Shown here: in pieces, positions 13,850 to 13,975 of the stretch | How the letters are laid out: each line of letters starts with the position of its first letter | Position numbering within the stretch: the stretch's first letter is position 1 | From: Escherichia coli | Lineage (GTDB): Bacteria > Pseudomonadota > Gammaproteobacteria > Enterobacterales > Enterobacteriaceae | Length of the DNA stretch: 64,000 bases | Reading direction: 5' to 3' (one strand) | NCBI RefSeq assembly: GCF_003790525.1 | Contig: NZ_CP033633.1 | Made by a program: the position numbers and the translations under genes | Notes under the pieces: model-generated | Told to the model about the DNA's origin: nothing | The model's input: only the letters and a program-made list of their open reading frames with translations | The model's database searches: none

Positions 13850-13975
13850 ATGCAGATACCATGCATATCCATATGTTTGGCATCTGCATATGACAGGCAT
13901 ACGCATATCTCACACATCTGCATATCTATAACATATACATATGTATCACATCTGCATATACTAAACATATATAAA
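13850..13975. repeat. Array of short CATATG/GCATAT-containing direct repeats
   Basis: CATCTGCATAT recurs at about 13882, 13913 and 13949 with related variants between, just upstream of vagC. Confidence 0.4.

Follow-up and report, generated by a model that had tools for sequence, protein, structure and literature searches.

In the window, by which we mean the whole 64,000-nucleotide stretch of Escherichia coli DNA analysed here, the vagCD toxin-antitoxin genes are preceded by an array of short direct repeats, to the left of which lie one arm of a recombination core and the remnant of a relaxase gene (Table 1). The original prediction had called a relaxase remnant on the left of the repeats and vagC on the right, and both calls are borne out by homology and profile matches. 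VagC scores 88 bits against the NCBIfam model TA_anti_VapB (cut-off 60), and its nearest solved relatives are the VapB proteins in 6IFM and 3ZVK, the latter being second-closest (E=7.5e-7). The matches of VagD to NCBIfam VapC models stay below their cut-offs, as does the score of the nikB remnant against TraI_MobP_relax, of which it covers positions 179-496 of 502.

Table 1. Features of the vagCD region and of the ccdAB-resD block in the window (window positions)
Feature	Position	Strand	Description
nikB remnant	12327-13816	-	IncI1-type relaxase; 5' end (catalytic N-terminus) absent
Junction overlap TATGAT	13811-13816		common to the nikB sequence and the vag module
Right arm TTTCGGATCC of an rfsF-type tyrosine-recombinase core	13820-13829	+	left arm missing
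Purine-rich tract CGGTGAAAAAAGAGAGA	13830-13846	+	between half core and array
Whole array	13847-13982	+	eight 17-bp units, head-to-tail, strict period
U0	starts 13847	+	degenerate; unit AACATGCAGATACCATG
U1	starts 13864	+	core CATATCCATAT; unit CATATCCATATGTTTGG
U2	starts 13881	+	core CATCTGCATAT; unit CATCTGCATATGACAGG
U3	starts 13898	+	core CATACGCATAT; unit CATACGCATATCTCACA
U4	starts 13915	+	core CATCTGCATAT; unit CATCTGCATATCTATAA
U5	starts 13932	+	core CATATACATAT; unit CATATACATATGTATCA
U6	starts 13949	+	core CATCTGCATAT; unit CATCTGCATATACTAAA
U7	starts 13966	+	partial, degenerate; unit CATATATAAAAGCCGTC
Predicted sigma-70 promoter	13934-13962	+	TATACA-17-TATACT
Ribosome-binding site AGGAGG	13988-13993	+	5 nt before the vagC ATG, read from sequence
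vagC	13999-14229	+	76 aa; vapB-family antitoxin; AbrB/MazE/SpoVT-type N-terminus (Pfam PF04014)
vagD	14226-14642	+	138 aa; vapC-family PIN-domain toxin (Pfam PIN); 4-nt overlap with vagC
Complete F-type rfsF core GATCCGAAAACTCCTGGTTCCGGATC	18223-18248	+	followed by the conserved rfsF left region
ccdA	18638-18856		after the conserved rfsF left region
ccdB	18858-19163		after ccdA
ResD-like tyrosine recombinase	19164-19973		after ccdB

Each unit of the array comprises an 11-nt core, CATNNNCATAT (CAT-N3-CATAT), and a variable 6-nt spacer. One version of the core, CATCTGCATAT, has three exact copies in the window, at 13881, 13915 and 13949, with a step of exactly 34 bp, and when up to one mismatch is allowed there are five matches where 1.18 would be expected (none of 100 shuffles reaches five). 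The CATATG-rich direct repeats that had been proposed upstream of vagCD are indeed present at that place and are non-random. Their spacing had been read as roughly 30-40 bp because CATCTGCATAT occupies every second unit; a value of 34 bp holds between identical units, but the true period is 17 bp. The extent given, 13850-13975, was likewise right as to place but slightly too narrow for an array that runs from about 13847 to about 13982. A repeat search recovered six copies at 17-bp steps and Tandem Repeats Finder returned periods of 17 and 34. Base identity within the array is 0.61 at lag 17 and 0.64 at lag 34, compared with 0.28 +/- 0.05 in 5000 dinucleotide-preserving shuffles of the sequence, and over lags 5 to 59 every shuffle stays below the observed values.

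The cores are also nearly symmetrical. Six sites (13865-13959), at exact 17-bp steps, match the palindrome ATATGCATAT at nine of ten positions, and just one further site in the 64 kb comes within one mismatch of it. In the consensus the left half reads ATATG and the right half CATAT; the right half is invariant among the six cores and the left half of each carries one conserved, unit-specific deviation, a hint that they may be more than plain symmetric sites for dimers. A step of 17 bp corresponds to about 1.6 helical turns, so that each successive site is rotated by about 223 degrees, and the eight units span about 13 turns.

That the repeats are chance low-complexity sequence or a meaningless scar, as AT-richness alone might suggest, can scarcely be credited. 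A comparable motif frequency arising by chance in AT-rich sequence had been named beforehand as the outcome that would speak against the array, and shuffles never match the observed periodicity; furthermore, the cores stand in register across lineages. The stretch had also been described as devoid of ORFs. Mechanical ORFs do cross it, but they are not conserved, and a coding role for them was rejected given that the spacers vary freely and the number of units shifts in 17-bp steps. When 13600-14300 was scanned with Rfam, the only matches were sub-threshold chance hits to miRNA families (about 20 bits, with gathering thresholds of 76-81).

We compared the region with 72,556 plasmids by megablast. 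Homology to other vagCD plasmids starts at 13811-13818, independently of the nikB homology, which ends at 13816. The array was found in IncF plasmids of Klebsiella (L001), Salmonella (L002, L007) and E. coli (L006, L008, L013), in an Enterobacter locus (L003), in the S. Dublin virulence plasmid (L004) and in virulence-type plasmids of Klebsiella (L012, L014), and it keeps its register even where the identity of vagCD between lineages has fallen to about 80%. When seven lineages were aligned, the four distal cores were 96.8% pairwise identical and the intervening spacers 44.8%; all spacer columns vary and nearly all core columns are invariant. Conserved cores separated by variable spacers are the pattern expected of sequence-specific protein binding.

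The array is also tied to vagC. At all plasmid loci read, vagC lies downstream of it, and when 100,044 species genomes were searched for two distal units side by side, 10 loci emerged, all 10 of them with vagC 120-165 bp downstream. The hosts range from Escherichia to Pantoea and Intestinirhabdus, always with vagC, and the replicons include IncF, IncK2/Z and IncHI1B (typed with MOB-suite) as well as contigs not typed as plasmids; an IncR context can be added from the literature, from which that replicon assignment is taken (PMC9412624). By contrast with the constant vagCD, the left neighbour varies, being an operon with ccdAB and Rsd in S. Dublin, an F-type ccdAB-resD operon in L006, an operon of two hypothetical genes and an integrase in L001, nikB in the window, and others elsewhere; the L001 operon can be equated with IncR-type resD only by analogy with the published plasmids (PMC9412624).

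The number of units is polymorphic, and it changes by whole units. L006 has four units and L008 eight, with identical VapB proteins, and comparing L006 at 2400-2440 with L008 at 2320-2425 shows the difference to be a clean 68-bp (four-unit) deletion inside the array; L007 is short of one unit and L013 has four to five. The NJ tree of vagCD is too roughly rooted to discriminate between a single gain and repeated loss of the distal units. In one clade (L012, L014, L024, L027, L028, L031, L032) the promoter-overlapping units are more degenerate than the four distal ones. At the Dickeya locus (L015) an IS21-family element truncates the region upstream of vagC. A vagCD sub-lineage (L004 at 23520-23583, L006, L008, L015, L023, L025, L026, L029) has an extra stretch of about 60 bp between the array and the vagC start; this insert contains CCGGATATGCATCACATATCCACAC, with further ATAT-type motifs and the DnaA-box-like TATCCACA. 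In the E. coli plasmid of L013, vagC (2501-2731) carries R16H at a predicted DNA-backbone contact, vagD is not annotated, and the shortened array is degenerate (CATCTTCACAT), which looks like a decaying locus where protein and sites are eroding together.

In form, a tandem series of direct repeats in which conserved cores alternate with variable spacers recalls iterons or parC-like centromeres, and the original prediction had accordingly offered an iteron-like remnant as one of three readings. We consider a remnant of a replication origin, or a partition centromere, extremely unlikely here. The array lies between the nikB remnant and vagCD, with no rep gene, origin or par gene next to it, and has a period of 17 bp. 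It accompanies vagCD on replicons of unrelated types, and its copy number can fall from eight to four while the replicon stays the same.

The predicted promoter lies inside the array. Its -35 element, TATACA (13934-13939), falls within U5, and its -10 element, TATACT (13957-13962), consists of the end of the U6 core and three nucleotides of spacer. It ends 37 nt before the vagC ATG, and the vagCD transcript would start near 13967-13969. It is the sole promoter-like site in 13700-14100. The original prediction had proposed a comparison with other vagCD promoter regions, and this proved informative, for CTATACA-N17-TATACT is kept upstream of vagC at every locus read, including loci that have no distal array, with the -10 reading TAAACT on the Pantoea chromosome (L017-L019). 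Three to four units with the conserved promoter, and no distal array, are present on that chromosome, in Serratia symbiotica (L020/L021) and on a Klebsiella plasmid (L011), which implies that the distal units are dispensable for the basic function. We also considered additional promoters in the distal units and rejected them, as the spacer half of the would-be -10 is not conserved there and only the proximal ACT is kept. Since the would-be -10 positions of the distal units fall in variable spacers, only the proximal pair of units forms a promoter. Furthermore, the N-terminal domain of VagC is nearly invariant across all lineages, paralleling the invariant cores of the array.

Taken together, these observations make it probable that the array is the vagCD promoter combined with a multi-site operator for VagC, or for a VagC-VagD complex. 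The sites immediately precede the antitoxin gene, within its promoter region, and overlap the -35 and -10; the cognate antitoxin has a DNA-binding domain; the six near-palindromes are dimer-sized, at 10 bp as in the 3ZVK sites; and the sites stay with vagCD across contexts, better conserved than the flanking DNA. Of the three readings in the original prediction, that of an operator array for VagC is thus the best supported, by the promoter inside the array, the dimer-sized near-palindromes and the linkage to vagCD, while we infer that it is VagC that binds, in what stoichiometry it does so and what the distal units contribute.

Structural work on related systems provides a framework. In the VapBC2-DNA complex of Rickettsia felis (3ZVK), a VapB4-VapC4 octamer sits on a 27-bp operator, and each VapB dimer uses Asn9, Gln11, Arg16 and Lys19 to read an AT-rich internal near-palindrome of 10 bp (PMC3326315). 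VagC has N9, N11, R16 and R19 at these positions, the asparagine at 9, the arginine at 16 and the basic residue at 19 being conserved, and the array likewise offers one 10-bp AT-rich near-palindrome per putative dimer. The 3ZVK operator, however, consists of one palindrome of 27 bp, in which 14 bp separate the site centres, rather than of an array, and its half-site is A(A/G)TAT, compared with ATATG here. Enteric VapB operators overlap the -35 and -10, VapB dimers are bridged on them by VapC dimers, the VapB-VapC octamers bind cooperatively, and excess toxin releases the complex (PMC3378870). The enteric vapBC loci with their operators vapO1/vapO2 (Salmonella LT2, Shigella mvpAT, pSLT vapBC2) resemble the array in combining an AbrB-type antitoxin with AT-rich ATAT sites over the -35 and -10; in the pSLT vapBC2 promoter, four ATATCC-type sites form two pairs, 13-15 bp apart, around these elements. 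They differ from it in having two operators (four half-sites) 13-15 bp apart where the array has eight sites at a strict 17-bp period, and in their motif, ATATCC as against ATATGCATAT; VagC is 28% identical to that VapB.

On this model, one VagC dimer would occupy each 10-bp core and VagD dimers would bridge neighbouring VagC dimers. VagC, probably as VagC-VagD, bound to U5 and U6 would block RNA polymerase, and vagCD would in this way regulate its own expression. The four or five distal units would be extra sites, probably derived by tandem duplication of a 34-bp block, along which toxin-bridged complexes could bind cooperatively over about 120 bp, giving tighter or more buffered repression; a protein coat on sites spaced by 17 bp would spiral around the DNA.

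Some features sit less comfortably with an operator. Toxin-antitoxin operators usually comprise one or two inverted repeats whose half-sites are spaced by 13-15 bp, whereas here eight units stand in direct register at 17 bp. Promoter units that are more degenerate than the distal ones, as seen in one clade, would be odd for a simple steric repressor. Our literature search found no binding or expression experiment on the vagCD array and no account of vagCD control. The cores might instead bind a host regulator or a nucleoid protein, rather than VagC, that controls vagCD or the local DNA structure. They are clearly under selection, and several nucleoid proteins favour AT-rich, TpA-rich sites, which are deformable; nevertheless, ATATGCATAT is by eye unlike the IHF, Fis, ArgR, ArcA, OmpR and DnaA-box consensus sequences, only one further site within one mismatch of it exists in the 64 kb, and the array is always accompanied by vagC across hosts. 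We therefore regard a host factor as very unlikely.

Arrays of many short direct repeats with a non-integral helical period, overlapping promoters, are known from other systems, namely the omega heptads of pSM19035 and ParR-parC of R1, where small dimeric DNA binders that use beta-strands coat the repeats cooperatively. These differ from the putative VagC array in their ribbon-helix-helix fold, their periods of 7 and 11 bp and their role in partition, and no partition genes are linked to the array here.

The strongest competing explanation comes from the left side of the array. Homology of the vag module to L003 begins at 13811 and that of nikB stops at 13816, and on sequence comparison 13811-13829 is the junction of the truncated nikB with the right half of an rfsF-type core. 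The original prediction had also suggested a recombination scar: this does not apply to the repeats, which are in register in all lineages, but it does hold for this junction, which lies just to their left at a distance of 20-35 bp. In an intact nikB (L033, 400-425, corresponding to 13802-13829 in the window) the breakpoint falls at the centre of GGTTATGATCATAACC, a perfect palindrome of 16 bp, which could be a secondary recombinase target or simple microhomology.

At the corresponding place L001, L002, L004 and L006 have full cores, GATCCG-N14-CGGATC, as do F and pSLT; in the four array-bearing loci about 35-40 bp separate the core (for example AGATCCGGAA-ctagcttt-TTTCGGATCT) from the first good unit downstream of it. 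To the left of it about 350 bp are conserved, followed by a divergent operon that ends in a tyrosine recombinase. The purine-rich tract between half core and array can be assigned to the rfsF side, because it is also present to the right of the core in F and pSLT. Two uncharacterised small ORFs replace ccdAB in the recombinase operons of L001 (1632-2639) and L002 (1542-2607), and two further small ORFs lie between ccdB and rsd in pSLT and in S. Dublin (L004); these could be recombinase accessory factors.

At other loci (L003, L008, L012, L014, L025, L026) the right arm is joined to unrelated left flanks, and homology between lineages breaks at the position of the core. The site has been named rfsF in published work, where vagCD adjoins it in IncR plasmids, the homology of some plasmids ends at it, and insertions that part vagCD and the IncR backbone have been mapped immediately downstream of the site (PMC9412624). 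ResD/Rsd recombinases would exchange plasmid modules at this crossover core, and its position next to the array would account for vagCD, array and half-core being found together with so many left neighbours.

The repeats could accordingly be accessory sequences of the adjacent rfsF/crs multimer-resolution site, orphaned in the window where the core is broken, with a coat made of the recombinase, a factor encoded in its operon, a host factor or VagC itself shaping the synapse or insulating the crossover site. Such a role would fit the distance of about 35-40 bp that separates the start of the array from the right arm of a complete or half rfsF-type core at all array-bearing loci read (about 20), the lack of distal units in three vagCD lineages that also lack a neighbouring rfsF, and the better conservation of distal than of promoter-proximal units in one clade. 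It would also fit the S. Dublin plasmid (NC_011204), where eight homologous units (CATATCCATAT, CATCTGCATAT, CATACGCATAT etc.) separate an rfsF-like core from vagC and lie upstream of ccdAB-rsd. That plasmid has an unbroken core with the recombinase operon next to it, whereas the window retains the right arm, with the nikB remnant on its left. Krause and Guiney reportedly noted in 1991 that crs of the S. Dublin plasmid pSDL2 contains 'eight direct incomplete 17-bp repeats', and we take the array region of the S. Dublin plasmid to be crs, which would make the present array homologous to the crs repeats. The link to rfsF and crs, like the 17-bp period and the near-palindromic cores, had been missed in the first reading of this DNA.

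The comparison with other rfsF sites points the other way. Resolution of F by ResD at rfsF was reportedly established by Lane et al. and by O'Connor et al. in 1986, and rfsF-ResD of F and rfsF-RsdB of pSLT are multimer-resolution systems with Cre-like tyrosine recombinases. Both share with the vag loci the core GATCCG-N14-CGGATC, the purine-rich tract and the region of about 350 bp to the left, which in F and pSLT lies upstream of ccdA, but neither has the 17-bp array or vagCD, and the array lies outside the shared rfsF module. In the window the complete core is absent and TTTCGGATCC stands by itself, where related loci have it complete. The recombinase partner varies between array-bearing loci while vagC is constant, and L006 combines a nearly F-identical ResD with an array reduced to four units. 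The core arms, GATCCGGAA, are unlike the array cores; the annotated ResD/Rsd-type integrases are short (about 260-270 aa), from which we infer that they lack an arm-binding domain; and the link to rfsF could reflect the shared ancestry of one clade.

The distal arrays are always accompanied by an rfsF core or half-core, and co-occurrence alone therefore cannot separate a role in recombination from one in vagCD control. It is the array-free rfsF sites of F and pSLT, the varying recombinase next to a constant vagC, and the four-unit array of L006 that lead us to favour assigning the array to vagCD and to consider accessory sites unlikely. The same comparison with F and pSLT argues, at the level of sequence, that the crs repeats belong to vagCD as well; their assignment to the resolution site by Krause and Guiney reportedly predates the description of vagCD.

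The two functions might also be joined, in that a VagC (or VagC-VagD) coat on the distal units could be functionally coupled to the neighbouring rfsF crossover, acting, for example, as an architectural accessory or as a roadblock to transcription by which ResD/Rsd recombination is shielded or biased. Although we judge this quite unlikely, it would explain why distal units are found only beside rfsF and are more strictly conserved than the promoter-proximal ones. There is thus a small chance that the fixed position beside rfsF reflects a real coupling of addiction and recombination modules, in which case the toxin-antitoxin complex would have a second function as a cofactor in the resolution of plasmid multimers or in module exchange.

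The array is common on enterobacterial plasmids and largely ordinary, and the region as a whole is a promoter-operator, on our preferred reading, beside a recombination junction, mostly ordinary too; what is unusual is the set of eight direct near-palindromic sites at 17 bp. Nevertheless, vagCD is among the commonest addiction modules of IncF, IncR and IncH resistance and virulence plasmids in Klebsiella, E. coli and Salmonella, and an eight-site VagC operator would be an unusually long direct-repeat operator for a toxin-antitoxin system. If so, the natural series of eight, seven, four and three units would be well suited to analyse how the number of operator sites relates to conditional cooperativity. 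On a practical matter, vagCD, array and half-core are shuffled together, as one unit, at rfsF, and recognising this helps in the annotation of mosaic plasmids. If crs is indeed this array region, the repeats were noted 35 years ago and assigned to a recombination site before vagCD was known.

The window also contains a complete rfsF core further along, followed by the conserved rfsF left region and a ccdAB-resD block (Table 1), with no 17-bp array beside the core. This block (18223-19973) is inverted relative to vagCD, the usual order being resD, ccdBA, rfsF, array and vagCD, with resD and ccdBA reading away from vagCD. It is separated from the vagCD module by an IS3-family element (15204-16417), which lies about 560 bp past vagD and has two overlapping ORFs (108 and 296 aa). 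On the other side, just past the 3' end of the nikB remnant, an ORF of the cytochrome b562 family (11553-11960, minus strand, 135 aa) has a signal-peptide-like N-terminus.
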